Assembly: GCA_013820915.1 (NCBI GenBank) | Contig: JACDHR010000001.1 | Location: 8,641-72,640 of the forward strand | DNA length: 64,000 nt | Direction of reading: 5' to 3' | Origin: Gemmatimonadota bacterium | GTDB lineage: Bacteria > Gemmatimonadota > Gemmatimonadetes > Longimicrobiales > Longimicrobiaceae | Shown here: positions 21,241-63,195 of the stretch, piece after piece | How positions within the stretch are numbered: the stretch's first letter is position 1 | Layout of the letters: each line of letters starts with the position of its first letter | Position numbers and translations under genes: made by a program | The notes under the pieces: model-generated | Seen by the model: the letters and a program-made list of their open reading frames with translations, nothing else | What the model was told of the DNA's origin: nothing | Databases searched by the model: none

Positions 21241-21244
21241 CTGG

Positions 21245-22195: not shown

Positions 22196-22214
22196 CCCGA
22201 ACCCTGAGTTGCCG

Positions 22215-22991
22215 ATGAAGCGTCCGTTCGTAATACTCGCCGTGCTTCTGCCGCTTGCTGCAGCCGCGTGCGGCCGAGAGCCCCAGGTAGTGGTGGAAGC
22301 CGCAACGACTCACCCCGAGACCGGAGCGCGTCAGGCGCTCGCCGATCTGCCGGTCCGCCTCCTCCCCTACGACCGCGACGCGATCTTCGATTCGCTCGAA
22401 GCTGCGTTCGCCGAGCCGGAGCCAGCCCTCCCACCCGAGCTGCTGGAACAGCAACGCCAGATCCAGACCGCCGAAACGGAGTGGCGCACCGCGGAGGAGC
22501 GCTGGGGCGAGGTCCGTGACTCGCTGCGCGTGCTTGCCGGGCAACTGCAGCAGATGGGTCAGGCCGGGCAGCGCGCCACGCCGCAGTACGTGCAGGCGTT
22601 CCGCAACTACGAGCGCCTCGAAAGCGAAGTATCACAGGTGCAGGGGCGTTCGCAGAATGCGTTCCAGCGCTACGATCAGCTTCAGCGCACCTTCCTCACG
22701 CAGGCGGACTCCATCCGCGTCGTCCGTGAGCAGTGGGGTGAACGCGCCTTCGCCGACTTCGACCGAGTCGTCGATGCGCGGCTGCAGCAGGCCGGCCGCG
22801 AAGAGTATGCCGATACCACCGGCGGCGCAGGGGTCGCGACGTTCCGCGCTCCGACCGGCCGTTGGTGGGTGTACGCGCGCTATCGGCTGCCATTCGAGGA
22901 GCTGTATTGGAACGTCCCTCTGGAGGTGACCGGCGACAGCGTCGGCGTTGTGCTGACTCGCGAGAACGCACAGGTCCGGCCGGCGATGTAA
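22215..22991 (+). CDS. hypothetical lipoprotein (coiled-coil N-terminal half)
   Basis: MKRPFVILAVLLPLAAAAC lipobox. High GC3 coding pattern. No recognisable family. Confidence 0.6.
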   Translation: MKRPFVILAVLLPLAAAACGREPQVVVEAATTHPETGARQALADLPVRLLPYDRDAIFDSLEAAFAEPEPALPPELLEQQRQIQTAETEWRTAEERWGEVRDSLRVLAGQLQQMGQAGQRATPQYVQAFRNYERLESEVSQVQGRSQNAFQRYDQLQRTFLTQADSIRVVREQWGERAFADFDRVVDARLQQAGREEYADTTGGAGVATFRAPTGRWWVYARYRLPFEELYWNVPLEVTGDSVGVVLTRENAQVRPAM

Positions 22992-37530: not shown

Positions 37531-40422
37531 TTACGGGGAGCCGCTACGGTCAGTAGCATCCAGCAACAATCGATAGCGCGACGCTTGTTCAGCATTGCCA
37601 AGCTTAGTGTAGAGGTCCACGAGGCCCTCCAGCGTTGCCTTCCCGGCTTCTCGCATCTGCGCCGTCATCTCCGCTTTTTGCAGCGTTTCATGCACCGCGA
37701 GCAGGTGTTCTTCCGCCTCGGCCGTACGGTCGAGGCGGGTCAGGGAATGAGCCAGATTGGAGCGGGCTCTCAACGTCCAGGCGTGATCCGCGCCAAGCGA
37801 CGCTTCGTAGATGCCGACCTGCCGCCGGCTCCACGACTCCGCGGCGCCAGGCTGGCCGCTCGCACGGAAAAATCCCGCGAGGGTGCCGATTGAATGACCG
37901 ATGCGCCAATGATTCTCCGGAAAATGCGCCCGGTGCAACTCGACCTCTTGGAGGAGCAACGCCTCCGCCTCCGCAAGCTTTCCCTGCAGCTCCAGCACGC
38001 TCGCCAGGTTCCCCGCAACTACCTGTCCGGATCGGTGGGCAGGGCCGAGTCCCTGCCGGGTCCCGATCAGCGACTCGCGATAGAGGCGTTCCGCCTCCGG
38101 ATACTCCTCCTTCATCCGCAACAGATAGGCCAGGTCGTTCCGCACGCCCGCTAGATCTGTCGCGGTCGCATCCGGAACGACGGACGCAGCTGTCAGCAGC
38201 TCCCGGTAGAGGCGCTCAGCGTCGTCCCAGCGGTCGAGAGAGCGAAGCACCCGGGCGAGAGTGGCCTTTGCCCTCCACACCCTGATGTGGTTTTCGGGAA
38301 CGCGGGCGCGGTACACCTCGAGCGCTTCCCGAAGCGTAGACTCGGCCCGTTCCGTATTGCCGTTCTCACGATGCGCCGCGGCCAGCTCCGTCAGCACGCC
38401 CGCAAGCACCAGCGGATCTCCCGTCTGCTGCTGCCGGAGGATACTAACGGCCTCTTCCAGATGAACTTCTGCTTCGCGGAAGCCACGCCGCCCCAGGTAA
38501 ATCCTTCCGAGCCGTGCGAGATTGGCCGCGACGATCGCGTGGTCAGAGCCGTGGAGACGGCGGCTCGTAGCGATCACCCCGCCGAGCAGGTCCCGCGCCT
38601 CATCGCGCATCCCCAGATCGTTCTGCACCTCGCCAATTGTCCAGAGCAGCTCAACGGCGATCTCCGGCTGATCCGCGAGCTCCGCACGCACGCGCTCAGC
38701 CCCACGGACCAGCAGTGTACGCGCCGATACCGTATCCCCACGTGCCTCGCTTCCCGGCTGCGCCGCGCGGAACAAGCTCGCTAGAAACGTCGTCGCCTGC
38801 TCCGCTCTTCCAGTCTGAATGAGGGCATCCCGAAGTGCGGTCTCAGCGCGGTTCCGCTCTGCCTCGGTCCCGGCCCGCGCGCTCTCGGCGGATTGCTGAG
38901 CGTCCCGCGCACGTCCGGCTTCTAACTCGGCACGCTCGAACTCCGAGCGAGCACGATTGCGCTCACCCTCGGCAACGGCTTGCGCCGCTTCGGCTCGGGA
39001 GCGTTCTGATTCCGCCCCGTCCCGCTCGCTCTCCGCTCGCGCCCGCTCCTGCCGTGCGACATTGCGCTCGGCCTCGAGACGATCGGCATGCGCCTGCAGC
39101 GTGCCCGTGTATGCACCCGCAGACAGGAGCACCACAAGTCCGGCTGCGACCACCCCCGGCCTTCGCCCCACGAATTTTTGGGCCCGGTATAGCCGGGTGT
39201 CCGGGCGTGCGGCCACCGGCCGGCCGCTCAGGTACCGCTCGACGTCGTCCGCGAGCGCGCCCGCGGAAGCGTAGCGCCGCTCCGGCTCCTTTTGCACCGC
39301 CCTGAGGAGGATGGTGTCCAGGTCGCCCCGGAGCCGGGCACGAAGCCGTCGCGCATCGGTACGTCGCAGGCGGGCGAGTTCTTCCGGCGCGACCTCACCA
39401 CGCGCCTCAGCCCCCGGCTCACGGACCAGCGCCACGCTGGAGGGCATCGGCTCCTGCTCGCGGAACGCCCGCTCGATTTCGGCCGGCGCACGCCCGCGCA
39501 GCCGGTACGGCCGCCGTCCGGCGAGCAGCCGGTAGAGCAGCATGCCGAGCTGGTACGCGTCGCTCGCCGTGGTCACCGGCTCGCCACGCACCTGCTCGGG
39601 ACTGGCGTACTCCGGCGTCATCAGCCGCAACCCGGGCCGTGTGTGCGGGCTGCGGTCCGGGCCGAGCGAGTCGTCGAGCAGCTTGGCGATCCCGAAGTCG
39701 AGCAGCTTCGGCGTGCCGTCCTCGGTCACCAGGATGTTCGAGGGCTTGATGTCGCGGTGGACGATCAGGTTGAGGTGCGCGTGCTGCACGGCGCGCGCGA
39801 CCTGCATGAAGAGCCGCAGACGCTCCTCGATCGTGCAGCGGCGCGCATCGCAGTACTCGGTGATCGGCCACCCCTCGACCAGCTCCATGACGAGGTAAGG
39901 ACGGCCCTCCCCAGTGGCGCCGCCGTCGAAGAGACGTGCGATGTGGGGGTGGTTCAGCGAGGCGAGGATCTGCCGCTCGGCGCGGAAGCGCGCCAGGATG
40001 TCGTCCGTATCCAGCCCGCGACGCAGCAGCTTGATGGCAACCCGCTGCTCGAACTCGCCGTCCACCCGCTCGGCCAGGTACACCGTGCCGCTGCCGCCGC
40101 GGCCGAGCTCCCGCACCAGCCGGTACGAGCCGATCCGGCCCCCCTCCGGCAGCACACCCTCGCCGCCCTCATCAGCCTCGGCCTCGATCACCGCGGCGAG
40201 GTCGCCGAGCGTTGGGCCGAAGGGCGTCTGGCCACCCGACTCGAGGAACCCGTCCGCCGCCTCGCTCGCCGTCAGCAGCGACTCGACGGCGGAGCGCAGC
40301 TCCGGATCACCCTCGCAGCAGGCGGCGAGATAGCCCGTCCGCTCTGCCGCGGGTACATCCAGCAGCGCGCAGAAAACGGCGTCGACCTCACTCCAGCGGT
40401 TCAGCAGGGGGCTACGCTCCAC
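37531..40422 (-). CDS. Ser/Thr protein kinase with TM segment, coiled coil and C-terminal TPR repeats (module 1)
   Basis: GTG at 40422 is preceded by GGAAGGAG. Kinase motifs GRGGSGTVY, VAIKLL, HRDIKPSNIL and DFGIAK. A long TPR-like C-terminal region. Confidence 0.9.
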   Translation of the reverse strand: MERSPLLNRWSEVDAVFCALLDVPAAERTGYLAACCEGDPELRSAVESLLTASEAADGFLESGGQTPFGPTLGDLAAVIEAEADEGGEGVLPEGGRIGSYRLVRELGRGGSGTVYLAERVDGEFEQRVAIKLLRRGLDTDDILARFRAERQILASLNHPHIARLFDGGATGEGRPYLVMELVEGWPITEYCDARRCTIEERLRLFMQVARAVQHAHLNLIVHRDIKPSNILVTEDGTPKLLDFGIAKLLDDSLGPDRSPHTRPGLRLMTPEYASPEQVRGEPVTTASDAYQLGMLLYRLLAGRRPYRLRGRAPAEIERAFREQEPMPSSVALVREPGAEARGEVAPEELARLRRTDARRLRARLRGDLDTILLRAVQKEPERRYASAGALADDVERYLSGRPVAARPDTRLYRAQKFVGRRPGVVAAGLVVLLSAGAYTGTLQAHADRLEAERNVARQERARAESERDGAESERSRAEAAQAVAEGERNRARSEFERAELEAGRARDAQQSAESARAGTEAERNRAETALRDALIQTGRAEQATTFLASLFRAAQPGSEARGDTVSARTLLVRGAERVRAELADQPEIAVELLWTIGEVQNDLGMRDEARDLLGGVIATSRRLHGSDHAIVAANLARLGRIYLGRRGFREAEVHLEEAVSILRQQQTGDPLVLAGVLTELAAAHRENGNTERAESTLREALEVYRARVPENHIRVWRAKATLARVLRSLDRWDDAERLYRELLTAASVVPDATATDLAGVRNDLAYLLRMKEEYPEAERLYRESLIGTRQGLGPAHRSGQVVAGNLASVLELQGKLAEAEALLLQEVELHRAHFPENHWRIGHSIGTLAGFFRASGQPGAAESWSRRQVGIYEASLGADHAWTLRARSNLAHSLTRLDRTAEAEEHLLAVHETLQKAEMTAQMREAGKATLEGLVDLYTKLGNAEQASRYRLLLDATDRSGSP

Positions 40423-40439
40423 GGTCGGCTCCTTCCCGT

Positions 40440-41051
40440 TCAGGTCCTGGCGGCGTCGGGGTGCAGCAAGTGGTAGAGGTACGTCTTCGCCCGCACCCAG
40501 TCGCGTTCCACGGTGCGCGTGGATAAGTCGAGCGCGGCCGCCGTCTCCGCCGCGGTCATCCCGCCGAAGAAGCGGCACTCCACGACCTTCTCCAGCCGCG
40601 GATCATGCTCGGCGAGCCGGCTTAGCGCTTCGTTCAGCGCCAGCAGCTCGGTCGTCTGCTCCTCCCTCGCACCCATCCCCGTGTGCAGCGTCACGTGGGC
40701 TCCCTCGCCACCCCGCTTCCCCGCGGCGCGCCGGCGCGCGTAATCGACCAGGATGCGGCGCATCGCCGTAGAAGCGATGGCGAAAAACTGCGCCCGATTC
40801 CGCCATTCCTCTCCCTGGCGCGGCGAGAGCTTGACGTACGCTTCGTGGACGAGTGCGGTGGTGTTCAGCGTGTGGTCGTCCCGCTCGTTGCGCAGATGGT
40901 TTCGCGCGATCTGGTGCAGGTCGCGGTAGATCAGCGAGAAAAGCTCGTCGAACGCGCCCGCCTCACCGTCCGCGTGCGCCGCAAGCAGCCGCTCGAGTTG
41001 CGCGGGGTTGTCGTGATGTGCTGCAAAGCCGTCTCCGCGGTGAACCGGCAT
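40440..41051 (-). CDS. ECF-type sigma-70 family factor, kinase-associated type (module 1)
   Basis: ATG at 41051. Region 2 (LVHEAYVKL) and region 4 (ECRFFGGMTAAETAAALDLSTRTVERDW). Stops 17 nt before the kinase start. Confidence 0.9.
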   Translation of the reverse strand: MPVHRGDGFAAHHDNPAQLERLLAAHADGEAGAFDELFSLIYRDLHQIARNHLRNERDDHTLNTTALVHEAYVKLSPRQGEEWRNRAQFFAIASTAMRRILVDYARRRAAGKRGGEGAHVTLHTGMGAREEQTTELLALNEALSRLAEHDPRLEKVVECRFFGGMTAAETAAALDLSTRTVERDWVRAKTYLYHLLHPDAART

Positions 41052-43500: not shown

Positions 43501-46116
43501 TCACCGAGCCATATGCATTTCCAGCTCAGCCCGATAGCGGTCCGCGTCTCCCGTTCTGCCCCACGCGTCGTATAGCTCCACGAGCGCTTCAAGCACGAAC
43601 TGTGTTCCCGGAGGACCGCCCGCGGAACGGGCGCGGCGATCGATGCCGAGCAGCACACGTTCGGCATCGCCAAACCTTCCGTGCAGGAACATCGAAGTGG
43701 CCAGGTGCGAGCTAGTTTTCAGTATGCGAATGTCCTCCGGACCCAGTTGCATCGTCCGGAACCGCTCGAGTGACTCGACGAGTAACGGCTCGGCCTCGGC
43801 ACCTCTGCCGAGAGTGTTCAAGATTCCGCCGAGGTGGGAAAGCGGGTAGGCTTTGGACGAGGAGTTCGGGTCCACCTGGTCGTAGAGAGCGATGGTTTCA
43901 CGGAAGATCGGCTCCGCGAGGTCCAGTTCGCCACGGTCCCGGTGGACGGCGGCGAGGTTGCTGAGCATTCCAAGGGCCTGCGGGTGTCGCTTCTGGACGA
44001 GTTTGTCCATGATCTCGACGGCGCGGCGCAGTAGCCGGACGCTCTCCTCCGAGTCGTCCGGTTCGACTGCGAGCGCGAGGTCGCTCAGGCTCCCCGCCAC
44101 CTCGATGCTCTCCTCGCCGAGCAGTGCTATGCGCAGCTCGAGCGCCTCGCGCATACGGTCCGGTCCACTCTCGCCGTCGAGCAACAAGGGATTGGCTTCG
44201 GAGCCATACGCAGAGATGACGAGCACGTGCGCCAGGTTCTCGCGCACATCGTCCGTCGATTCGCGGAAGATCCGGATAGCGCGCCGGTACATCGCCCTCA
44301 CCTCTTCGTTCGGAACGACGCCGCGGAAGCTGAGGGAATGGCCATAGTCTGTCAGGATTCGCCCGACGACCTGGTGGGATGGACCCGCGTGGCGTTCGGC
44401 CAGCGTGAGCGCTTCGCGATACAGGGAGTCGCTGCGCGCGGGATCGCTCCGTTGGAGCAGGAATGCGATCGCTCTCAGGTCGTCCGCATGGTCGGCGGCG
44501 TGCTCCGTTGCGACCAGGCGGCGCGCGGATACAGCATCCGTGTACAGCGCGAGCGCGCGCTCGTTCACCCCGTACTCCTGGTACACTCTCGCGATAGCCG
44601 AGAGCAGCGACGCCCTGACCGGCGGCTGCTCCACGAGGCGGACCTCGAGCCGACGAGCGGCTTCATCGAGCAACTCACGGGCGGTCACCATCCCGCCCTT
44701 GGTGACGTTGGGGCCCGAAAACGTGAAAACCTCCCGCATGAAGCCGGCGACCTGGCGAGCCTTTTCCGCCTCGACCCGCGCGCGGTCGCGCTCCCGCTCC
44801 AACGCCTGCGCGTGTAGTTGCAGGGTAGCCGAGTAGCCGATTCCGGCCAGAGAGATCAGCATCCCCGCCGCCACCGTGCCCGGGCGCCGTCTGATCAGCT
44901 TTTTCGCGCGGTAGCCCCACGTAGCGGGTCGGGCGGCAACCGGCCGGCGATCGAGGTGCCGCTCCACATCCTCGGCCAGATCCGCCGCGGACGCGTAGCG
45001 CTGTTCCGGCTCGCTCCGCAGGGCCTTGGCGACGATGGTATCGATGTCGCCGGAGAGCCGCGCGCGTAAGCGGCGGGGGTCGGTCCCGCGGCGGGTTGCG
45101 ATCACCGCCACGATGTCGCCGCCGGGCCCCGCCTCTCCCGCCTCTCCCCTCCGTCGAAGCGCCTGACTGGGGCGCTCCGGATCCTGCTCGCGGACCGCCG
45201 TCTCGAACGCCTGCGGGGAGCGGCTCTCGATCCGGTACGGCCGCCGTCCGCTCACCAACTCATAGAGCAGCAGCCCGAGCTGGTACACGTCCACGGCGGT
45301 GGTGATCGGGTCGCCGCGCACCTGCTCGGGGCTCGCGTAGGCCGGCGTCATCGGGCGGAGGCCGGTCCGCGTCAGCGGCGTGTCGCGGAGCGCCGGATCG
45401 GCGTGCAGCAGCTTGGCGATGCCGAAGTCCAGGAGCTTGGGCGTTCCGTCGCCGGTCACCAGGATGTTGGACGGCTTGATGTCGCGATGGACGATCAGTT
45501 TGCGGTGAGCGTGCTGGACCGCGCGGCAGACGGTAGCGAACAGGCGGAGACGCTCGCCGATACCGAGACGCCGCGAGTCGCAGTATTCTGTGATGGGCTC
45601 ACCCTCGACGAGTTCCATGATGAGGTACGGCCGGCCGTCGTCAGTCGCTCCGCCGTCGTAGAGGCGTGCGATGTTCGGATGGCTGAGCGACGCGAGGATT
45701 CGCCGCTCCGCGCGGAAACGCTCGAGCACATCCGCCGTGTCCAGCCCGCGACGCAGGATCTTGACGGCCAGCCGCTGCTCGAAGTCTCCACCTACGCGCT
45801 CCGCCGCGTACACGGTGCCGGTGCCGCCGCGTCCGATCGGTGCGAGGAGCCGATAGGCGCCGACTCGCCTGCCGACGTCCTCCGCGTCGCAATCGAGTTC
45901 ATCAGCGAGGGTGACGAGGAGGGCGGGGTCTTCGAGGAAATCCGGAGCGGTCTCGACTGAAGCCACCAACTCGGACGCGAGCCGAAGAAGATCCTCATCG
46001 CCGCCGCACGCCTCCCGCAAAAAGGCAGCGCGGGCGCTCGGTGCGCGGTCCAGCGCGGCGTCGAAAAGCGCGTTGACCTCGCGCCACCGATCCAGCACCA
46101 CCTTTCCCGTGGTCAT
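43501..46116 (-). CDS. Ser/Thr protein kinase with TM segment and C-terminal TPR repeats (module 2)
   Basis: ATG at 46116 (MTTGKVVLDRWREV...). GRGGTGTVY, LAVKIL, HRDIKPSNIL and DFGIAK motifs. Paralog of 37531..40422. Confidence 0.9.
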   Translation of the reverse strand: MTTGKVVLDRWREVNALFDAALDRAPSARAAFLREACGGDEDLLRLASELVASVETAPDFLEDPALLVTLADELDCDAEDVGRRVGAYRLLAPIGRGGTGTVYAAERVGGDFEQRLAVKILRRGLDTADVLERFRAERRILASLSHPNIARLYDGGATDDGRPYLIMELVEGEPITEYCDSRRLGIGERLRLFATVCRAVQHAHRKLIVHRDIKPSNILVTGDGTPKLLDFGIAKLLHADPALRDTPLTRTGLRPMTPAYASPEQVRGDPITTAVDVYQLGLLLYELVSGRRPYRIESRSPQAFETAVREQDPERPSQALRRRGEAGEAGPGGDIVAVIATRRGTDPRRLRARLSGDIDTIVAKALRSEPEQRYASAADLAEDVERHLDRRPVAARPATWGYRAKKLIRRRPGTVAAGMLISLAGIGYSATLQLHAQALERERDRARVEAEKARQVAGFMREVFTFSGPNVTKGGMVTARELLDEAARRLEVRLVEQPPVRASLLSAIARVYQEYGVNERALALYTDAVSARRLVATEHAADHADDLRAIAFLLQRSDPARSDSLYREALTLAERHAGPSHQVVGRILTDYGHSLSFRGVVPNEEVRAMYRRAIRIFRESTDDVRENLAHVLVISAYGSEANPLLLDGESGPDRMREALELRIALLGEESIEVAGSLSDLALAVEPDDSEESVRLLRRAVEIMDKLVQKRHPQALGMLSNLAAVHRDRGELDLAEPIFRETIALYDQVDPNSSSKAYPLSHLGGILNTLGRGAEAEPLLVESLERFRTMQLGPEDIRILKTSSHLATSMFLHGRFGDAERVLLGIDRRARSAGGPPGTQFVLEALVELYDAWGRTGDADRYRAELEMHMAR

Positions 46117-46181
46117 GCGCACAGCCTCGCGAAGCGTTGGTTGCGGGGGCCGGTCGAAGGGCGATCCCTCCGAGTGTACGG

Positions 46182-46766
46182 CTAATCCGCCTGAGGGCCG
46201 TCCCGCAGCAGGTGGTAGAGATACGCCTTGGCGCGCGTCCAGTCTCGCTCCACCGTACTGGACGAGACACCCAGCACTTCCGCCGTTTCCCCGGTACTCA
46301 GCCCGCCGAAGAAGCGGCACTCCACCACCCGCTCCAGGCGCGGATCGTGGCTGGCGAGCTGCGAAAGCGCCTCGTCGAGTTCGATCAGATCGACCGACTG
46401 CTGCTCGGACGCGACCGACCCGGGTTGCAGCGTCACGTGGATCACTTCGCCACCGCGCTTCCGGGTGCCACGTCCGCGGGCATGGTCGATCAGCACGTGG
46501 CGCATCGCCTTGGATACGAAGGCGCGAAACCGCACCGGTTCCCTCCATTCGATCTCCGGACGCTCCGAAAGTTTCAAATAGGCTTCGTGCACGAGCGCGG
46601 TGGTGACGAGCGTGTGGCCGGCTCGCTCACGCCGAAGATGCCGCCGCGCGATCTCGCGCAGCTCGTCGTAGAAAAGCGCGAAGAGCCGGTCGAACTCACC
46701 CGGGCTCAGGTCCGGGGAGGCCGCGGCCGCTGCACGCTCACCCGCGTTGTTCGGCACCACGGACAT
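46182..46766 (-). CDS. ECF-type sigma-70 family factor, kinase-associated type (module 2)
   Basis: ATG at 46766. LVHEAYLKL and ECRFFGGLSTGETAEVLGVSSSTVERDW. Paralog of 40440..41051. Confidence 0.9.
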   Translation of the reverse strand: MSVVPNNAGERAAAAASPDLSPGEFDRLFALFYDELREIARRHLRRERAGHTLVTTALVHEAYLKLSERPEIEWREPVRFRAFVSKAMRHVLIDHARGRGTRKRGGEVIHVTLQPGSVASEQQSVDLIELDEALSQLASHDPRLERVVECRFFGGLSTGETAEVLGVSSSTVERDWTRAKAYLYHLLRDGPQAD

Positions 46767-52827: not shown

Positions 52828-53259
52828 CTACATCGTTGCGGCATCGAAATCCGCCAGGCGGGTAATCTGCCCCCGCGCGTGCGCTTTCCGATAGTAGCGG
52901 TCGTCCGCCGTGACGAGCGTGGCGTCAGCCAGACTGAGCGCGACGGCGTAATAAAGCGTGTCGAAGAGGTGATGGTTCAAGCTGATCGACAGCTCGCAGG
53001 CGGTCGTGTACACTTCTGAACTCTGCGTGACGATTATCCCGAGCTCGTGCAGATCGCGAATGTCCTCCGCTGCCGTCGCAGGGCTGAGCCGGGCAACGAC
53101 CGCCGCCACCTCCGCGAGCCAATGCGGCGGCTGAATCAATTGTAGTCGCCCATTCCGGAACCCTTCCCACAAGTGAACCGCCCTCGCTGCTTGCTCCTCT
53201 CCGCGTTGCGGGAGAAGCCATTTGATCACGACGCTCGAATCCGCAACGACTACGGTCAC
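52828..53259 (-). CDS. vapC: PIN-domain toxin, VapC family (copy 2)
   Basis: 143 aa, collinear with copy 1 (VVADSSVV..KWL, HWLAEVAAVVARLSPATA, LNHHLFDTLYYAVAL, LVTADDRYYRKA). GTGA overlap with vapB-2. Confidence 0.85.
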   Translation of the reverse strand: MTVVVADSSVVIKWLLPQRGEEQAARAVHLWEGFRNGRLQLIQPPHWLAEVAAVVARLSPATAAEDIRDLHELGIIVTQSSEVYTTACELSISLNHHLFDTLYYAVALSLADATLVTADDRYYRKAHARGQITRLADFDAATM

Positions 53260-53489
53260 GCGCGCAGTTCGTCACGAACAGCCTGGATCTGTTCGCTCGT
53301 TACGGTCGGGCGCGCATCCCTTCGGGCCAGCAATCGGTCGATCGCCGCGTTCCGCTCTCGAATTTGGTCCTGTTCCTGGACCGTCCGAGCCATCAACCCG
53401 GCGATGATCGCGCTCTTGTTCCGGCCGGCGAACACTTCGTTGAAGGCCTGCTTCACCTCGTCGGGTACGCTGTAGTTCACGGTAGCCAT
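53256..53489 (-). CDS. vapB: ribbon-helix-helix antitoxin, VapB-like (copy 2)
   Basis: 77 aa, collinear with copy 1 (MATVNYSVPDEVKQAFNEVFAGRNKSAII). Confidence 0.8.
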   Translation of the reverse strand: MATVNYSVPDEVKQAFNEVFAGRNKSAIIAGLMARTVQEQDQIRERNAAIDRLLARRDARPTVTSEQIQAVRDELRA

Positions 53490-56116: not shown

Positions 56117-56860
56117 CTATTTCTTGGGCGGTTGGCTGGGGCGCACCTCGATTCGAGAGGGCAGCGCCCGCGAGTGCATGGATAGCAGGTCCATCACCAG
56201 CTTCGCGATGTCCTCGGGTTGGATCATCCAGGCCGTCTCCCGCTGCTCGCTGTGCGAGCCGCCGGGCCCGGAGAAATCGGTGTTCACGCTGCCCGGCATG
56301 ATATAGTTCACGCGGATGCCGTCGTGACGCACGTCCATCATCAGCGCTTCGGAGAAGCCGACCAGGCCGAACTTCGAGGCGTTGTACGCCGCGCCGCCCG
56401 CGAACGCGTTCTTACCTGCCAGCGACGCGATGTTGATAATCCATGCGTCGCCGCTTTCCCGGAGGTGCGGGATCGCCGCGTGACAGCAGTAGAAGACACC
56501 GCTCAGATTGGTCTCGATCACCTGGTCCCACTTCTCGACGCTCAGCTCCTCGACAGACCCGAACGCGCCCACGCCCGCGTTGTTGATGAGGATGTCGAGG
56601 CTGCCGAGCTCGCGAACCGTTTCCTCAACCAGGCGCTGCACGTCCTCCGCTCGGCGCACGTCGCACGGGATCCCGACCACCCGTCCTCCCCCCTGCTCCG
56701 CAAGCTCGCGCGCGGCCACCTGAACCTCGTCCGCGCTCCGCGCCGAGATCGCGACATTCGCCCCAGCCGCAGTCAGCGCCCGCGCGATGCCGTACCCGAT
56801 CCCCTTACTTCCTCCCGTGACGATCGCCGTCTTCCCGCGTATCTGCTCGCTCATGTCCAT
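56117..56860 (-). CDS. short-chain dehydrogenase/reductase (SDR) family oxidoreductase
   Basis: TGGSKGIGYGIA (TGxxxGxG), NNAG and YNASK catalytic motifs. 247 aa. Confidence 0.9.
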   Translation of the reverse strand: MDMSEQIRGKTAIVTGGSKGIGYGIARALTAAGANVAISARSADEVQVAARELAEQGGGRVVGIPCDVRRAEDVQRLVEETVRELGSLDILINNAGVGAFGSVEELSVEKWDQVIETNLSGVFYCCHAAIPHLRESGDAWIINIASLAGKNAFAGGAAYNASKFGLVGFSEALMMDVRHDGIRVNYIMPGSVNTDFSGPGGSHSEQRETAWMIQPEDIAKLVMDLLSMHSRALPSRIEVRPSQPPKK

Positions 56861-57060: not shown

Positions 57061-57783
57061 ATGTGGAATCGGGAGCACCACCGCTGGTACAGCCCCTCGC
57101 TGGGGCGCGACATGGAACTCCTGCTCTTCGGCCACGCGGGAGCGCGTTGCGTGGTGTTCCCCACCTCCCAAGGCCGCTTCTTCGAGTGGGAGGATCAGGG
57201 AATGATCCAGGCGCTCGGCGCGCACCTGCAAGAGGGGTGGCTCCAGATCGTCTGTGTAGACAGTGTGGACGCCGAGAGCTGGTATGCGAGGTGGAAGCAC
57301 CCGGCAGACCGTGCCCGGCGGCAGGGCGATTACGAACGCTACGTCCTGGACGAGGTTCTCCCCTTCTCCGCGAACCGCAGCGCGAGCCCTTTCGTGATTA
57401 CCACGGGTGCCAGCTTCGGCGCGTATCATGCGGTGGACATGGCGTTCCGGCACCCCGACCGTTTCGGACGCGTGATCGGCCTGAGCGGCCTGTACGACAT
57501 CAAGGAGATGACCTCCGGGTACTCGGATGGCGAGGTCTGGGCGCATGATCCATCGCAGTACGTGTCGCAGATCAGCGATTCCCACTGGGTCGACGCGATG
57601 CGGAGGCTGGACATCATTCTGGCGACCGGCCGGGGCGACTCCTTCGTCGGCAACAACGAGTATCTCAGCCGCGCCCTCTGGGCGCGCGGGATCGGAAACG
57701 GGCTGCGCCTCTGGGACGGATGGGCGCACGACTGGCCCTGGTGGCGTGAGATGATCGTGAAGTACATCGGCGGCCACGACTGA
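57061..57783 (+). CDS. alpha/beta-hydrolase 'esterase family' protein (PF00756-like)
   Basis: ATG at 57061 (MWNREHHRWYSPSLGRDMELLLFG). GASFGAYHA nucleophile-elbow-like motif. The upstream part of ORF 56866.. is unlikely to be coding. Confidence 0.75.
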   Translation: MWNREHHRWYSPSLGRDMELLLFGHAGARCVVFPTSQGRFFEWEDQGMIQALGAHLQEGWLQIVCVDSVDAESWYARWKHPADRARRQGDYERYVLDEVLPFSANRSASPFVITTGASFGAYHAVDMAFRHPDRFGRVIGLSGLYDIKEMTSGYSDGEVWAHDPSQYVSQISDSHWVDAMRRLDIILATGRGDSFVGNNEYLSRALWARGIGNGLRLWDGWAHDWPWWREMIVKYIGGHD

Positions 57784-57839
57784 TCGCGGCCGGCGAGCCG
57801 GCAGCCTCCACTTCCTCTTCCCCGCACCTACACGGAACT

Positions 57840-58796
57840 ATGGCGACGAAAATCGGATTGATCGTCGGGCGTGAGTGGTCGTTTCCCCCCGCATTCATCG
57901 AAGAAGTCAACCGGCGTGACGAGGGGGTAACGGCGGAATTCGTGACGCTGGACGCTCCAAGGATGGACGAGCCGTGCGAGTACGCCGTGATCATCGACCG
58001 CATCTCGCACGAGGTCCCCTTCTACCGCACGTATCTCAAGCACGCGGTGGTCCAGGGGTGTACGGTGGTCAACAACCCGTTCATGTGGACGGCCGACGAC
58101 AAGTTCTTCGGCGCCTCGCTCATCACGCAGCTCGGGGTCGCGAGCCCGAAAACGGTCGTGCTGCCCCACAAGGAGTACGTACCGGGGATCAAGCACGACG
58201 AGAGTCTCCGCAACCTCCGCTATCCGCTGGATTGGCAGGGGGTGATCGATTACATCGGCATGCCCTGCATCCTCAAGGACGCCCATGGTGGCGGGTGGAG
58301 AGATGTTTACGTGTGCCGCTCGCCGGAGGAGCTCATCCAGAACTACAACGAGTCGGGCATGCTCACGATGATCGTGCAGGAGTTCATCGAGTGGGACGAA
58401 TTCGTACGCTGCATGTGTCTCGGCCAGGACGAGATCCTGCCGATGAAGTACGACCCGCGGGAGCGCCGCTATCACGTGGAGCACGAGCATCTGAGCGCCG
58501 AGATCGGCCACCGCGTGGTGGAGGATGCGCGCACGATCGTCCGTGCGCTCGGCTATGACATGAACTCGATCGAGTTCGCGATCCGGGACGGTGTGCCCTA
58601 CGCGATCGACTTCATGAACCCGGCACCCGACATGGACGTCAACTCGCTCACGCCCCACTATTTCGAGTGGGTGGTGACGCATATGGCGGACATGGCGATC
58701 CGGCTCGCGAAGGAACCACGGCCGCAGAACCGCGAACTGCGCTGGGACACGTTGATCACGGGGCGACGGCAGGATATCGCCGCCCAATCCACCTGA
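57840..58796 (+). CDS. ATP-grasp domain ligase
   Basis: Pre-ATP-grasp layout. PCILKDAHGGGWRDV (Lys/Gly-rich loop), MIVQEFIE, and NSIEFAIRDGVPYAIDFMN (Mg/ATP-binding end). Confidence 0.85.
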   Translation: MATKIGLIVGREWSFPPAFIEEVNRRDEGVTAEFVTLDAPRMDEPCEYAVIIDRISHEVPFYRTYLKHAVVQGCTVVNNPFMWTADDKFFGASLITQLGVASPKTVVLPHKEYVPGIKHDESLRNLRYPLDWQGVIDYIGMPCILKDAHGGGWRDVYVCRSPEELIQNYNESGMLTMIVQEFIEWDEFVRCMCLGQDEILPMKYDPRERRYHVEHEHLSAEIGHRVVEDARTIVRALGYDMNSIEFAIRDGVPYAIDFMNPAPDMDVNSLTPHYFEWVVTHMADMAIRLAKEPRPQNRELRWDTLITGRRQDIAAQST

Positions 58797-58808
58797 ACCG
58801 CGACCCTC

Positions 58809-60161
58809 ATGGCGCTGCACGAAGCGATCGACACCTACCACGAGCTTCTCGGCGACGACATCGCCGGGGAATCGCAGCGGCAGCTGGATGCGCAGCTCCG
58901 CCGGAAAGGCCTCTTCTTCGGTGATCGGCCGCTCTGCACCGTACTGCGGCCGCGGTTCCTCACCCCGGAGCAGTACCGGTTCCTCCAGGCCCGAATCGCG
59001 CTGCTGCTGGGCTCCTTCGACCGCGTCTACCGGGCCGCGATCGCCGACGCGGGCTTCCGCGCCCAGTTCCGCCTCTTCGACTGGGAGGAGGAGCTGGTGC
59101 AGCAGGACCACGGCTTCCGCGACGCCAGCCCCGTGTCGCGCCTGGATGCGTTCTTTGTATCGGAGAAGGGCGGGCTGAAGTTCACCGAGTACAACGCGGA
59201 GACACCGGCCGGCGCGGCCTACGGAGATCTCCTCTCCGAGGTCTTCCTCGGCCTCCCAGTGATGCGCGAGTTCCTGCGCCGCTTTCAGGCGCGCCCGCTT
59301 CCCGCGCGGCACATGGTGCTGCACGCGCTGACCACCGCGTACCGCGAGTGGTCGGGCAGGAGCGAGGCGCCACGCATCGGCATCCTGGACTGGAGCGAGG
59401 TCCCCACCTACAGCGAGTTCCTGGTCACGGTGGACTACTTCCGCTCGCAGGGGATCGAGTGCATCATCGCCGACCCGCGCGAGGTGGAGTACCGCGATGG
59501 GAAGCTGATGGCGGGCGACTTCCACATCACGCTGGTCTACAAGCGGGTGCTGATCTCGGAACTGGTAGAGCGCGAGGGCCTCACCCACCCGATCGTGCGT
59601 GCGGTACGCGACGGCGCGGTGTGCATGGTGAACCCGTTCCGCTGCAAGATCCTGCACAAGAAAGCCAGCCTCGCCGTGCTCAGCGACGAGCGCAACGCGC
59701 ACCTCTTCAGCCAGCGGGAGCACGAGACGATCGCGATGCACATCCCGTGGACGCGGGTTGTGGAGGAACGGAAGACGCAGTACCGCGACGAGACGATTGA
59801 CCTCCTTGACTGGACACTGCGGAACCGCGAGCACCTGGTCCTCAAGCCCAACGACGAGTACGGCGGAACCGGGATCGTGCTGGGCTGGGAGGTGGACGAC
59901 GCGCAGTGGGAGCAGGCACTTCACCGGGCAGGCGAAGAGGCGTACATCGTCCAGGAGCGGATCACGATCCCGCGCGAGGCGTTCCCGAGCATGGTCGATG
60001 GAGAGATGCAGCTTCACGACCGGATCCTCGACACCGCGCCCTTCTGCTTCCACGGCACGTTCATGGAAGGGTGCATGACCCGCCTCTCGACGGAGGCGCT
60101 GGTCAACGTAACGGCCGGTGGCGGATCCAGCGTTCCGACATTTATCATAGAGAAACGGTAG
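58809..60161 (+). CDS. circularly permuted ATP-grasp type 2 protein
   Basis: RLDAFFVSEKGGLKFTEYNAETPAG...LVLKPNDEYGGTGIVLG...YIVQERI pattern. Order of elements is consistent with CP_ATPgrasp_2 (from memory of the family, not searched). Confidence 0.72.
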   Translation: MALHEAIDTYHELLGDDIAGESQRQLDAQLRRKGLFFGDRPLCTVLRPRFLTPEQYRFLQARIALLLGSFDRVYRAAIADAGFRAQFRLFDWEEELVQQDHGFRDASPVSRLDAFFVSEKGGLKFTEYNAETPAGAAYGDLLSEVFLGLPVMREFLRRFQARPLPARHMVLHALTTAYREWSGRSEAPRIGILDWSEVPTYSEFLVTVDYFRSQGIECIIADPREVEYRDGKLMAGDFHITLVYKRVLISELVEREGLTHPIVRAVRDGAVCMVNPFRCKILHKKASLAVLSDERNAHLFSQREHETIAMHIPWTRVVEERKTQYRDETIDLLDWTLRNREHLVLKPNDEYGGTGIVLGWEVDDAQWEQALHRAGEEAYIVQERITIPREAFPSMVDGEMQLHDRILDTAPFCFHGTFMEGCMTRLSTEALVNVTAGGGSSVPTFIIEKR

Positions 60162-60248
60162 CTTTCCGCGGATCGGCGCCCGGAGGGCCGGCGCTCTGCC
60201 ATGGCGGAACGGCAGCCGCACCACTCGCGACAAAGGAAAGGCTTTTTC

Positions 60249-61376
60249 ATGAAAGCGCCTTCACTGACCATCGGCGTCGAGGAAGAGTACCAGATCATCG
60301 ATCCTGAAACGCGGGAGTTGCGCTCGTATATCACCGAGATCCTGAACGACGACACGCTCATCCTGGGCGAGGTGAAGCCCGAGCTTCACCAGTCGATCGT
60401 GGAGATCGGCACCCGTGTCTGCGAGACGCCCGCGGACGCCTGCGCCGAGCTTCGCCGGCTCCGCGGAATGGTGATGGGCCTCGCCGCGCGAAAAGGGCTC
60501 AAAGTCGTCGCGGCGGGAACTCATCCGTTCTCCTCCTGGCTGACGCAGGAGATCACTCCGCTCGAGCGCTACCTCGGTGTGAAGCAGGACATGCAGGACC
60601 TGGCGCAGCAGCTCCTGATCTTCGGAACGCACGTGCACATCGGGATCGAGGATCGCGAGTTCCTGATCGACGCGATGAACGTCTCGCGCTACTTCCTTCC
60701 GCATCTGCTCTGCCTTACCTCCAGCTCGCCGTTCTGGATGGGACGCAACACAGGGCTCAAGTCGTATCGGAGCGTCATCTTCCGGAACTTCCCGCGGACC
60801 GGGATACCACGGATCATGCGCTCCTGGGGAGATTTTCAGTACCTACAGGACACACTCGTCCGCACCCGCTCCATCCCGGACGGCTCCAAGATCTACTGGG
60901 ACGTACGGCCGCACCACCTCTATCCGACCCTGGAATTCCGGTTCCTCGACGTGTGCACCCGCGTCGAGGAGGCGGTGTGCATTGCGGCGATCCTGCAGGC
61001 GCTGATCGCCAAGCTCTGGAAGATGCGCCGCGACAATGTCACCTTCCGCGTCTACCCTGCCGATCTCATCGAGGAAAACAAGTGGCGCTCGGTGCGCTAC
61101 GGGCTGGACGGCAACCTGATCGACTTCGGGAAACTGCAGGATTTCCCCGCGCGCGAGCTGATCCGTGAAATGCTGGAATGGTTCATCGGCGATGTGGTCG
61201 ACGAACTCGGCAGCCGTACCGAAGTGGAGTATGCCTTCAAGATCCTGGAGCAGGGCTCGAGCGCCGATCGCCAGCTCGCCGTGTTCGAGGAGACCAACGA
61301 TCTGAAGTCGGTGGTCGATCACCTCATCCGCGAGACGGAGGAGGGGGTGGTCTCGAAGTCGGAGGCCGCCGCGTGA
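60249..61376 (+). CDS. carboxylate-amine ligase, GCS2 / YbdK family
   Basis: RBS AAAGGAAAGG then ATG at 60249. [43 protein letters not shown] and WDVRPH...TLEFRFLD motifs. Confidence 0.88.
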
Positions 61377-61457
61377 AGCGGGGCATGTGAGCGCGGGCAT
61401 CTAGGCAGAATGGCCGGAATCCGCTAGATTACCACGCCGTAACCATTTACACTACGT

Positions 61458-61473
61458 GCTCCCCTCGGGGAGC
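61458..61473 (+). terminator. short hairpin plus T-rich tail between the GCS2 and C26 genes (possible attenuator or terminator)
   Basis: gctcccc-tc-ggggagc followed by cgtttctta. The stem is short, so function is uncertain. Confidence 0.35.
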
Positions 61474-61496
61474 CGTTTCTTATCTCGGACTTTATC

Positions 61497-62273
61497 ATGC
61501 AACGACCTACAATCGGGGTTCCGACACAGACCTTGCAGGCAATCGACGGGATCCCCGCCGGGCTTCCGCACTCCTGGGTGATGAATCACCGCTACTTCAC
61601 CGCGCTCGTCGCTTCGGGCGCGGTGCCGTGGATGATCCCGCTGATGGACAGCGAGACGGATACGCTGCGCGCGATCTACGATCGGTTGGACGGCCTCTTC
61701 ATCGCCGGCGGCGTGGACCTGGACCCTTCGAGCTACGGCGAGGAGCAGCACCCCCTCTGCGGGCGCACGGACCTCTCGCGCGACCGGGTCGAGCTGATGA
61801 TGACGAAGTGGGCGCTGGAGGACAAGAAGCCGGTCTTCGGCGTGTGCCGCGGGATGCAGGTGATCAACGTGGCCGCGGGCGGGACTCTGTACCAGGACTG
61901 CACGGAGCTGTATGCCGGCTCCATCAAGCACGACTACTTCCCAACGGCCGGGTTCGCGCGCGACCACCTGGCGCACGAGGTTCGGCTCGCGGACGAATCA
62001 CGGCTCCGCCAGATCTTCGGGTCGCCGGTCATCCGGGTGAACAGCATGCACCATCAGGGGATCCGCACGCTCGGCGAGGGTCTGATGTCGAGCGCGTATG
62101 CGGAAGACGAGTTGATCGAGGCGCTCGAGGGTACGACGGACCACTTCCTCGTGGGCGTGCAATGGCACCCCGAGATGCTCGTCGACGGAGACGCCGGTAC
62201 ACGCCGGCTCTTCGATTCGTTCATCGAGGACGCCCGCGAGTGGAGGGAGAGCCACGCCGTGGTCGGCGTGTAG
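61497..62273 (+). CDS. class I glutamine amidotransferase-like / peptidase C26 (gamma-glutamyl hydrolase, PuuD-like)
   Basis: GVCRGMQVINVAAGG (nucleophile Cys) and the HHQG / QWHPE triad region. Confidence 0.88.
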   Translation: MQRPTIGVPTQTLQAIDGIPAGLPHSWVMNHRYFTALVASGAVPWMIPLMDSETDTLRAIYDRLDGLFIAGGVDLDPSSYGEEQHPLCGRTDLSRDRVELMMTKWALEDKKPVFGVCRGMQVINVAAGGTLYQDCTELYAGSIKHDYFPTAGFARDHLAHEVRLADESRLRQIFGSPVIRVNSMHHQGIRTLGEGLMSSAYAEDELIEALEGTTDHFLVGVQWHPEMLVDGDAGTRRLFDSFIEDAREWRESHAVVGV

Positions 62274-62296
62274 CCCCCGTTGAGCCCGCAGAGGTG

Positions 62297-62331
62297 AGCG
62301 GGGGTACGGAACCGGGTTCCGTACCCCCGCT
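62297..62331. terminator. bidirectional perfect hairpin (17-bp arms) between convergent genes
   Basis: agcgggggtacggaacc-g-ggttccgtacccccgct, between the stops at 62273 (+) and 62335 (-). Confidence 0.7.
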
Positions 62332-62334
62332 GGC

Positions 62335-63195
62335 TCATGGTGCGACCGGCGCGCCGCCGTCGGGCGGACTGCCGAGCAGCAGCTTCAGCTCTTTGCGCAG
62401 TCGCCGAGCCCATGCCCTTTCTTCGTGTCGACCGCCTACCTCCACCACGTAGAAGAAGTCCCTTCCGCTCTGATAGTCCTTTGCGATCAGCAGCTCCCGG
62501 AGCCGCCGCACGTCTGTCAGTTCTTCCGCGCCCTCCTGCGTTCCCACATCCAGATAGATCTTCCCCGAGACGAAGGGCGCCTGCTCTACGTAGCCGAAGA
62601 TCGCGCGCTTGGCGAACCAGAGCGCGGGGCTCATCACGCCCGTGAAGCCGAATACGTCCGGATGGCGGAAGAAGGCGTACAGGCTGATCAGCCCGCCCAT
62701 CGATGACCCGGCGATCCCGGTGTGCTCGCGTGCGGGGTTGGTGCGGAAATCCCTGTCTACCGCCGGTTTCAGCGTGTTGACGATAAAGTAGAGGTACGCG
62801 TCGCCCTTCCCGCCGCCGTGCTTCGGATCGGCGAACGGGCTGTACTCGTCGCACCGTTCTTCCTCCATGTTGGGGATACCGACCACGATCGCCTCTAAGC
62901 CGTCCTGGCTGACGTCCTCCATGACCTCGTCCACCGCCCACTCGTCGGCGAAGCTGGTTGCCTTGTCGAACAGGTTCTGCCCGTCGTGCATGTAGATCAC
63001 GGGGTACCGCCGGTCGCCCGCGTCGTACGAGGGAGGGAGGTAGACCAGGATATCGCGGTGGTTCTCGAGCTCGGGGCTCCAGAACTGGTCCATCACCTTG
63101 ATCGTGCCCACCACGCTGTGCTCGCGCCCGTCCTCCACCGGATAATCCATCCAGCTCGGCACTACCAAGTCACTCTCTGTTCGGCTCTCACTCAT
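62335..63195 (-). CDS. alpha/beta-hydrolase esterase family protein (esterase D / IroE-like)
   Basis: YPVIYMHDGQNLFD and GSSMGG nucleophile elbow. 286 aa. Confidence 0.8.
   Translation of the reverse strand: MSESRTESDLVVPSWMDYPVEDGREHSVVGTIKVMDQFWSPELENHRDILVYLPPSYDAGDRRYPVIYMHDGQNLFDKATSFADEWAVDEVMEDVSQDGLEAIVVGIPNMEEERCDEYSPFADPKHGGGKGDAYLYFIVNTLKPAVDRDFRTNPAREHTGIAGSSMGGLISLYAFFRHPDVFGFTGVMSPALWFAKRAIFGYVEQAPFVSGKIYLDVGTQEGAEELTDVRRLRELLIAKDYQSGRDFFYVVEVGGRHEERAWARRLRKELKLLLGSPPDGGAPVAP

Follow-up and report, generated by a model that had tools for sequence, protein, structure and literature searches.

We read a cluster of six genes at positions 57061–63195 of a 64,000-nucleotide stretch of DNA from a soil Gemmatimonadota metagenome-assembled genome (MAG), hereafter the window, as encoding a cytoplasmic, ribosome-independent pathway that makes and breaks a small peptide-like metabolite, with a probability of about 0.55. 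The cluster comprises three ATP-dependent carboxylate–amine ligases and up to three hydrolases which, as judged from their sequences, are co-inherited with intact motifs. It is a genuine, widespread and highly conserved operon. Its evolutionary unit is a three-gene core that encodes an esterase-family protein (Est1), a classical ATP-grasp ligase (AG) and a circularly permuted ATP-grasp ligase (CPAG). A YbdK-type carboxylate–amine ligase (GCS2) is a frequent extension of this core, and a class-I glutamine-amidotransferase-like cysteine hydrolase (C26) and a second esterase (Est2) form an extension specific to Gemmatimonadota and Rhodothermia. The best reading of the product class is a cytoplasmic γ-glutamyl-type oligopeptide or pseudopeptide that would be built stepwise and turned over.

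Est1 (57061–57783, 240 residues), AG (57840–58796, 318 residues), CPAG (58809–60161, 450 residues), GCS2 (60249–61376, with an alternative start at 60201; 375 residues) and C26 (61497–62273, 258 residues) lie on the forward strand, and Est2 (62335–63195, 286 residues) lies on the reverse strand, convergent to the operon. The intergenic gaps from Est1 to C26 are 56, 12, 87 and 120 nucleotides (nt), where 87 holds for the GCS2 start at 60249. These open reading frame (ORF) positions and gaps are those given in the initial annotation; a second contig from this organism, on which genes were called independently, yields the same six products with the same lengths as the ORF listing. CPAG begins 12 nt past the AG stop codon, and this short gap suggests translational coupling of the two ligases. 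The three different ligase folds and the hydrolases named in the initial annotation are present: hidden Markov models (HMMs) identify GCS2 and the hydrolases (PF04107, PF07722 and PF00756, all above cut-off), and structure prediction identifies the two ATP-grasp proteins, whose matches to PF14403 and to other ATP-grasp families fall below threshold.

The locus scan covered one genome per GTDB species and gave at least 591 confirmed loci. Eighty of these, together with three loci from metagenome contigs, were compared after mapping of the window proteins by tblastn; the presence counts below are restricted to loci whose sequence extends far enough on the side in question. In these 83 loci from five phyla (Gemmatimonadota, Chloroflexota, Planctomycetota, Rhodothermia and Acidobacteriota) the same genes recur in the same order between unrelated flanking genes, so their adjacency exceeds chance and the gene set is co-conserved well beyond the window. 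Counted over all phyla, AG is directly upstream of CPAG in all 68 testable loci and Est1 stands beside the AG–CPAG pair in 54 of 60. GCS2 follows CPAG in 36 of 37 Gemmatimonadota loci, 8 of 27 from Chloroflexota and 3 of 5 from Planctomycetota. C26 occurs in 31 of 32 loci from Gemmatimonadota and in none of the 24 from Chloroflexota or the 4 from Planctomycetota; Est2 occurs in 15 of 17 loci from Gemmatimonadota and 1 of 18 from Chloroflexota. The six-gene unit proposed initially is therefore near-universal in Gemmatimonadota, but the conserved core consists only of Est1, AG and CPAG. Because GCS2, C26 and Est2 are lineage-restricted additions, the γ-glutamyl part is not the heart of the system.

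The CPAG tree (neighbour-joining, without support values) nests a Rhodothermia locus and a group of Ktedonobacteraceae, Chloroflexia and Acidobacteriota inside the Longimicrobiales-type Gemmatimonadota clade; the other Chloroflexota cluster with Planctomycetota. Taken together with the 62–86% identity of AG and GCS2 across phyla, this topology suggests inter-phylum transfer of the operon and strong purifying selection.

The match of CPAG to PF14403 (25.1 bits, E 1.1e-5) does not reach the gathering threshold of 32 bits, covers only model positions 223–373 in the C-terminal part and is marked ‘faint’ in the precomputed table. Among 83 diverse relatives, at 30–60% identity, 66 match PF14403 at E ≤ 1e-3 (best E 3e-17), 28 match CP_ATPgrasp_1 and 13 weakly match GSP_synth. 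The sub-threshold score and the weak model matches even among diverse relatives indicate that this clade is peripheral to the PF14403 family rather than its prototype. CPAG homologues fill more than 7,000 clusters at 90% identity, and 631 relatives reached E ≤ 1e-30 when 1.84 billion representatives were searched exhaustively.

The AlphaFold model of CPAG has a pLDDT of 96.7. The top Foldseek matches are the human, soybean and potato glutathione or homoglutathione synthetases (E about 1e-19 to 1e-17, query-normalized TM-score about 0.66–0.70), a likeness at the level of fold only, with 14–15% identity. They are followed by 3n6x, Cp1B, Escherichia coli glutathionylspermidine synthetase (GspS), YjfC/YgiC and trypanothione synthetase (TryS). 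A Foldseek probability of 1.0 to glutathione synthetase (GSS), 3n6x, GspS and YgiC/YjfC identifies the circularly permuted ATP-grasp fold. A single-sequence search against PDB sequences gave nothing useful for CPAG; the profile of the 83 relatives, which was informative along with the fold search, matches 3n6x (5e-14), Cp1B (2e-11) and GspS (5e-6), the last over the N-terminal half only. The window protein has no PF03738 (GSP_synth) match and no CHAP domain, which sets it outside the glutathionylspermidine and trypanothione synthetases, and GSH-S/GSH_synth family models are absent at E ≤ 0.01. R111/D113, E127/N129, K346 and G352–G353 are invariant among the relatives. By its modelled fold, CPAG is a ligase of the glutathione-synthetase/glutathionylspermidine-synthetase type. 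Structure prediction and fold search thus confirm both ATP-grasp assignments, which are weak by HMM.

Two database fusions, P0332 (AG–CPAG) and P0298 (CPAG–GCS2), were rejected as frameshift or assembly artefacts because they contain long out-of-frame Arg/Ala-rich stretches. A further entry, P0366, is a 990-residue fusion of an AMP-binding domain and CPAG. Plasmid carriage of the operon was also rejected, as plasmids gave only CPAG paralogues of ~25% identity. One of these clusters (L085; Bacillus thuringiensis plasmid NZ_CP017574.1, 14561–19838) contains, in this order, an AMP-binding gene, two tandem ‘glutathionylspermidine synthase family’ genes and a MATE pump, and adjoins a cyclodipeptide synthase/P450 pair. 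Another (L086; Selenomonas plasmid NC_017076.1, 18634–22976) consists of a GCS-family ligase, a MATE pump and then the CPAG paralogue.

The accessory ligase GCS2 matches PF04107 with 179 bits. It passes the ‘carboxylate-amine ligase’ model NF010039 (505 vs 371 bits) and the YbdK family model TIGR02050 (263 vs 176), and its nearest solved structures in a sequence search are those of YbdK (1r8g/1tt4, E 1e-40). The motifs EEEY, HxH and SSPFW...SYR are conserved. GCS2 is predicted to be a γ-glutamyl-X ligase with a glutamine-synthetase-like fold.

The combination of GCS2 with CPAG raises a specific and attractive sub-case of the small-metabolite pathway, in which the product is a thiol. Here GCS2 would be a γ-Glu-Cys ligase, CPAG or AG would carry out the glutathione-synthetase step, the other ligase would attach a further amine such as a polyamine, and the hydrolases would degrade the product. 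The eukaryotic glutathione and homoglutathione synthetases at the top of the CPAG fold list, with GspS and trypanothione synthetase behind them, suit this scheme, as does the YbdK/GCS2 superfamily, which includes genuine γ-Glu-Cys ligases. GCS2 itself, however, is below every glutamate–cysteine ligase cut-off (NF010043, 338 vs 409 bits; NF010042, 242 vs 427; NF010044, 227 vs 437; TIGR02048, 60 vs 249), neither AG nor CPAG matches a GshB, GSH_synth or GSP_synth model, and GCS2 is missing at the locus in 19 of 27 Chloroflexota and 2 of 5 Planctomycetota. PF00756, the family of both esterases, includes S-formylglutathione hydrolase, but the FghA match of Est2 reaches just 20 bits vs 282. Gemmatimonadetes have moreover been predicted to synthesize bacillithiol (PMC6282198). 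We consider a thiol product unlikely, attractive as it is.

AG lacks a comparable family assignment. Its Pfam and NCBIfam matches to Ddl, LysX and RimK models are all sub-threshold (PF08443, 18.5 bits vs a cut-off of 21). The score against the RimK family model TIGR00768 is 41.1 bits vs 143.4, which leaves AG outside the RimK α-L-glutamate ligases, and that against the LysX-type model TIGR02144 is 19 bits vs 276. GSH-S/GSH_synth models are absent at E ≤ 0.01, so that AG is not a glutathione synthetase by sequence either. AG homologues form more than 8,000 protein clusters at 90% identity; among the matches listed, none of 120 homologues (75–85% identity) carries a precomputed Pfam domain. The AlphaFold model, built from a shallow alignment, has a pLDDT of 78. 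It resembles RimK (including the RimK–RpsF complex), D-Ala-D-Ala ligase and ArgX/LysX alike, at a TM-score of about 0.6, suggesting that AG is a generic classical ATP-grasp without a specific family home. Its orthologue alignment shows three invariant motifs, LKDAxGGGW, QE and AIDFMNPAPD. Many AG orthologues, such as P0164, P0197, P0224 and P0236 from Longimicrobium and relatives, carry an apparently disordered Gly/Ser/Asp/Thr-rich C-terminal tail of 100–200 residues; the window protein does not.

The proximity of AG to RimK and ArgX/LysX, which act on protein C-termini, leads to the proposal that a specific protein encoded outside the cluster receives amino acids from AG and CPAG, at its C-terminus or on a side chain, in the manner of S6 glutamylation or of LysW-type carriers, and that Est1, C26 and Est2 remove the tag. 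Peptide tagging is said to have been raised as an option for such systems in the comparative-genomic amidoligase survey of Iyer, Abhiman, Burroughs and Aravind (Mol Biosyst, 2009), and the 62–85% identity of AG across phyla is what recognition of a conserved macromolecule would be expected to produce. The RimK and LysX family scores given above nevertheless lie far under their cut-offs. Across 84 loci, the cluster and its surroundings out to 600 nt hold no conserved small ORF and no carrier-like gene, and clustering of small ORFs gave only antisense shadows of neighbouring genes; the same search found no precursor of a ribosomally made peptide with post-translational modifications (graspetide-type) and no Pup-like tag. 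The characterized relatives of CPAG and the C26 relative PuuD all use small molecules. Some loci also carry accessory S9 β-propeller peptidases resembling dipeptidyl peptidases such as Dpp5, which act on oligopeptides and not on folded proteins. Protein tagging is therefore decidedly unlikely; between the oligopeptide and the protein C-terminal modification left open by the initial annotation, a small molecule is favoured.

The hydrolases are more easily assigned to families. Est1 matches PF00756 with 45.4 bits (cut-off 22) and has no significant solved-structure relative among PDB sequences. In an alignment of 61 orthologues, Ser118, the GxSxG nucleophile (GASFG), is conserved along with His223 (HDWP). 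Est1 is predicted to be a divergent α/β-hydrolase (an amidase, peptidase or esterase) that acts on the product. C26 matches PF07722 with 197.7 bits (cut-off 20.5) and contains a Cys–His–Glu triad, with Cys117, His224 and Glu226 invariant in 37 orthologues. Its nearest solved relatives are Lin1909 (1e-34), the γ-Glu-GABA hydrolase PuuD (3e-25) and the ‘probable glutamine amidotransferase’ 7d4r (6e-23). The score against the PuuD equivalog model NF008471 (110 vs 266 bits) shows that C26 is not PuuD itself, and it is predicted to be a γ-glutamyl-amide hydrolase. Est2 matches PF00756 with 128 bits, has CE1 feruloyl esterases, the bacillibactin esterase BES and IroE-like siderophore esterases as nearest solved relatives, and conserves Ser165 (GSSMG) and His257. 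Because catalytic motifs are conserved in the orthologue alignments (31–83 orthologues per protein), all six enzymes are likely to be active.

The relationship of C26 to PuuD is also compatible with a catabolic or detoxifying route of the Puu/Spu kind, in which GCS2 γ-glutamylates an amine, C26 later frees the glutamate and the other genes process the intermediate. PuuA-type γ-glutamyl-amine ligases share the glutamine-synthetase-like fold, and the PF04107 protein GCS2 has a fold of this kind. Such a route would make no sense of two further ATP-consuming ligases, however, and most Chloroflexota have the core of Est1, AG and CPAG without GCS2 and C26. The loci share no conserved oxidase or aldehyde dehydrogenase, and the sole nearby oxidoreductase, an SDR-family protein, is not co-conserved. 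We regard this route as very unlikely.

Several hydrolases beside RimK-like folds, which are capable of glutamate polymerization, could alternatively point to a non-ribosomal poly-amino-acid serving as a storage or protective polymer (cyanophycin- or polyglutamate-like), built by the ATP-grasp enzymes and depolymerized by the hydrolases. Est1 does show a weak match to polyhydroxyalkanoate (PHA)-depolymerase-type esterases (E 0.003). Against this, cyanophycin synthetase (CphA) models are absent among the NCBIfam matches of AG and CPAG, no Mur-ligase domain occurs in the cluster, and the additional ATP-grasp proteins of some loci score 32–42 bits vs 850 (TIGR02068.2) and 877 (NF010623.0). There is no cyanophycinase (S51) or Pgs-type gene, and the characterized CPAG relatives add one residue or amine per reaction. 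A polymer is highly improbable.

In the small-metabolite pathway that we favour, the product would be assembled stepwise through acyl-phosphate intermediates and would also be degraded or trimmed. AG and CPAG would perform two consecutive ligations: one of them would make a dipeptide-like acid via an acyl-phosphate, and its partner would couple this acid, through its carboxylate, to a further amine, either an amino acid or a polyamine. Est1 would hydrolyse the product or an intermediate, reversing or editing one ligation, as a counterpart of the GspS amidase domain. In the Gemmatimonadota extension, the YbdK-type GCS2 would add or supply a γ-glutamyl unit, which the PuuD-like C26 would remove, either for turnover or because the unit is a transient handle, following the EgtA/EgtC logic of ergothioneine synthesis. 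Est2 may contribute a further hydrolytic step in Gemmatimonadota. The product family would vary in length or decoration, since other lineages swap in L-amino-acid-ligase-like ATP-grasps or a Dpp5-like S9 oligopeptidase.

The main argument for small-molecule synthesis comes from the CPAG clade, in which each characterized member couples a small acid or a peptide, by its carboxylate, to an amine. It is consistent with the kinship of C26, whose nearest solved relatives include PuuD, a hydrolase of a small γ-glutamyl amide, and with the lineage-specific additions, which are single-step ligases and an oligopeptidase. The distant plasmid paralogues of CPAG sit with AMP-binding, GCS2-family and MATE-efflux genes. 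No signal peptides are evident in the N-termini of the cluster proteins, and the lack of a conserved small ORF nearby and the strong hairpin that closes the operon likewise fit a cytoplasmic pathway of this kind. Several points weigh against this interpretation. The AG model is of only moderate confidence, and the folds closest to it are those of RimK and LysX/ArgX, enzymes acting on protein C-termini. At 62–86% identity across phyla, AG and GCS2 are conserved to a degree that secondary metabolism seldom shows and that could instead point to a macromolecular substrate. Many loci lack GCS2 and C26, and the γ-glutamyl scheme is therefore not general. Three hydrolases are many for one small product, and no transporter or regulator that might hint at physiology is conserved with the cluster across the compared loci.

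A more far-reaching proposal, unlikely but worth stating, is that Est1, AG and CPAG (with GCS2 and C26 where present) make an undescribed cytoplasmic cofactor-like metabolite. Examples would be a novel low-molecular-weight thiol akin to glutathione or glutathionylspermidine, or a conjugate of a peptide and a polyamine. If so, a metabolite common to soil Gemmatimonadota, Chloroflexota and Planctomycetota would have spread by operon transfer and would fill a gap in lineages without a known redox buffer, such as Planctomycetes.

The end of the operon is marked by a GC-rich hairpin between C26 and Est2 (62297–62331, no strand assigned), in which a perfect 16-bp stem, read directly from the sequence, lies between the convergent stop codons and separates Est2 from the operon. 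The stretch 62274–62336, which contains this stem, folds with −39.9 kcal/mol (z = −4.8), and none of 200 shuffled sequences is as stable. The hairpin is likely a bidirectional terminator. The initial annotation had described the set as bracketed by two esterases; both are present, but Est2 lies on the opposite strand beyond this hairpin, and its place varies among genomes between upstream co-directional, divergent and downstream convergent. The SDR gene (56117–56860, reverse strand) is divergent from Est1 as had been described, but neither it nor the downstream PCMT gene is co-conserved with the cluster. A second GC hairpin, GCTCCCCTCGGGGAGC at 61458–61473 (forward strand), is followed by a T-rich tail within the 120-nt gap between GCS2 and C26. 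It is a weak candidate for an internal terminator or attenuator that could set the accessory C26 apart from the ligases: the terminator consensus scan that includes it gave 2 sites vs 3.2 expected in shuffled sequences, which is not above chance, and the gap as a whole shows an unexceptional fold (z = −0.85). A σ70 scan, uninformative for this phylum, gave 0 promoters, and an Rfam scan for riboswitches or leader RNAs upstream of and inside the cluster gave only a chance miRNA match (E 0.78). No compositional anomaly was found at the cluster.

Some lineages carry additional genes at the locus. An extra ATP-grasp of ~406 residues, similar to L-amino-acid ligases and to the N-terminal domain of PRK02186 and sub-threshold for ATP-grasp_4, is recruited in 11 loci, as a tandem pair in five (L026, L032, L039, L045 and L052) and singly in six (L010, L022, L027, L028, L029 and L054). 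In two Chloroflexota loci without GCS2 it sits right after CPAG. An S9 peptidase with a β-propeller (Dpp5-like, ~680 residues) is found immediately 3′ of GCS2 in four loci (L009:13316–14617, L014:12553–14604, L030:4449–6482 and L080:13546–14403), hosted by two Chloroflexia MAGs, one Ktedonobacteraceae MAG and one Acidobacteriota MAG. It takes the position of C26 in Gemmatimonadota and may replace it functionally. A DegV-family gene is divergent and upstream of Est1 in six Chloroflexota loci (L034, L035, L038, L048, L049 and L056), with a peptide chain release factor gene (PCRF/RF-1 domains) beyond it in L034, L048 and L049; these neighbours probably reflect lineage synteny rather than a functional link. 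A role in defence was considered and rejected, as none of the six proteins matched a PADLOC family.

The rest of the window contains only housekeeping or otherwise ordinary chromosomal genes, and no gshA/gshB, polyamine or transporter genes that would fit the pathway. Two paralogous Ser/Thr protein kinase–TPR proteins of 1015 residues each (37531–40578 and 43501–46548, both on the reverse strand) lie 3 kb apart, with a 572-residue Ig-domain protein between them; the identity of the two kinases is 39% across their length and 52% in the kinase half. A PIN-domain (VapC-like) toxin gene (52828–53259, reverse) overlaps by 4 nt a 77-residue upstream ORF (53256–53489, reverse), which has no Pfam match and is presumably the antitoxin. 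A TamB-like protein of 1651 residues and an adjacent Omp85/POTRA (TamA-like) protein are encoded at 23138–30267 (reverse) with a 1-nt overlap. Several sizeable ORFs show gene-like GC content at third codon positions but no Pfam match at E ≤ 1e-5: they lie at 1931–4390 (forward, 819 residues), 17042–19485 (forward, an overlapping pair of 404 and 410 residues), 20431–21525 (reverse, 364 residues) and 22209–22991 (forward, 260 residues).

Our analysis defines a minimal core, an obligate ATP-grasp partner outside Pfam and tiered accessory genes, and it places CPAG beside glutathione synthetase, argues against a linked precursor or tag gene and gives signs of inter-phylum transfer. The operon is abundant, being present in at least 591 species-level genomes, and it occurs in little-studied bacteria that are dominant in soils. 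Three ATP-spending ligases under such purifying selection imply a physiologically important product. A three-gene core with glutathione synthetase and the peptide–polyamine ligases as the nearest mechanistic relatives of CPAG makes the biochemistry more tractable and the operon a good target for metabolite discovery. Full-text literature searches found no experimental work on PF14403-type clusters, in line with the statement of the initial annotation that no product or role had been demonstrated. The general prediction of small-peptide synthesis for such clusters reportedly dates from the 2009 survey, and nothing in our analysis overturns it.

The survey and the Pfam entry for PF14403 are said to describe a neighbourhood with a GCS2-like ligase, an α/β-hydrolase peptidase, a glutamine amidotransferase (GAT)-like amidohydrolase and an M20 peptidase. 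The first three also occur here, in Gemmatimonadota; only the α/β-hydrolase is general across phyla. In contrast to that neighbourhood, the invariable partner in our cluster is a classical ATP-grasp without a Pfam family, the amidohydrolase is C26, with a class I fold, and no M20 peptidase is conserved.

The γ-glutamyl arm has its closest parallels in the Puu/Spu (PuuA/PuuD) and EgtA/EgtC pairs, in which a γ-glutamyl ligase of the glutamine-synthetase-like fold is paired with an amidotransferase-like γ-glutamyl hydrolase; EgtA is itself a GCS2-family enzyme. Unlike those systems, the cluster has no oxidative or sulfur-transfer enzymes, and GCS2 and C26 are accessory to a core with two ATP-grasp ligases. 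RimK, which poly-glutamylates S6, and the LysX/ArgX–LysW system have the folds nearest to AG, but family scores are far under the cut-offs and the cluster has no linked gene for S6, a LysW-like protein or another small partner.

For CPAG, the nearest characterized enzymes all form amide bonds on small substrates. Glutathione and homoglutathione synthetases join γ-Glu-Cys to Gly or β-Ala, and GspS and TryS join glutathione to spermidine. E. coli YgiC/YjfC join a peptide and spermidine, and fungal Cp1B of the E-64 pathway joins epoxysuccinate and an amino acid (PMC12568646). YgiC/YjfC and Cp1B belong to the same circularly permuted ATP-grasp clade as CPAG, but their identity to it is only 14–16% and their genomic context differs. 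As a whole, the cluster is most like the route from glutathione to GspS/TryS products, which likewise combines a ligase of the glutamine-synthetase-like fold, an ATP-grasp and a circularly permuted ATP-grasp with a reversing hydrolase. It differs in that α/β-hydrolases and C26 stand in place of a CHAP amidase, that GCS2 is dispensable in many lineages, and that no gene reaches the curated GshA, GshB, GSS or GSP_synth thresholds. The curated cut-offs for the glutathione, glutathionylspermidine, cyanophycin and RimK/S6 pathways are missed throughout, and the genes are not reassigned to any of these pathways, which would have displaced the initial proposal. Our comparison indicates that the cluster belongs to none of these families yet resembles the glutathione- and glutathionylspermidine-type ligase systems.

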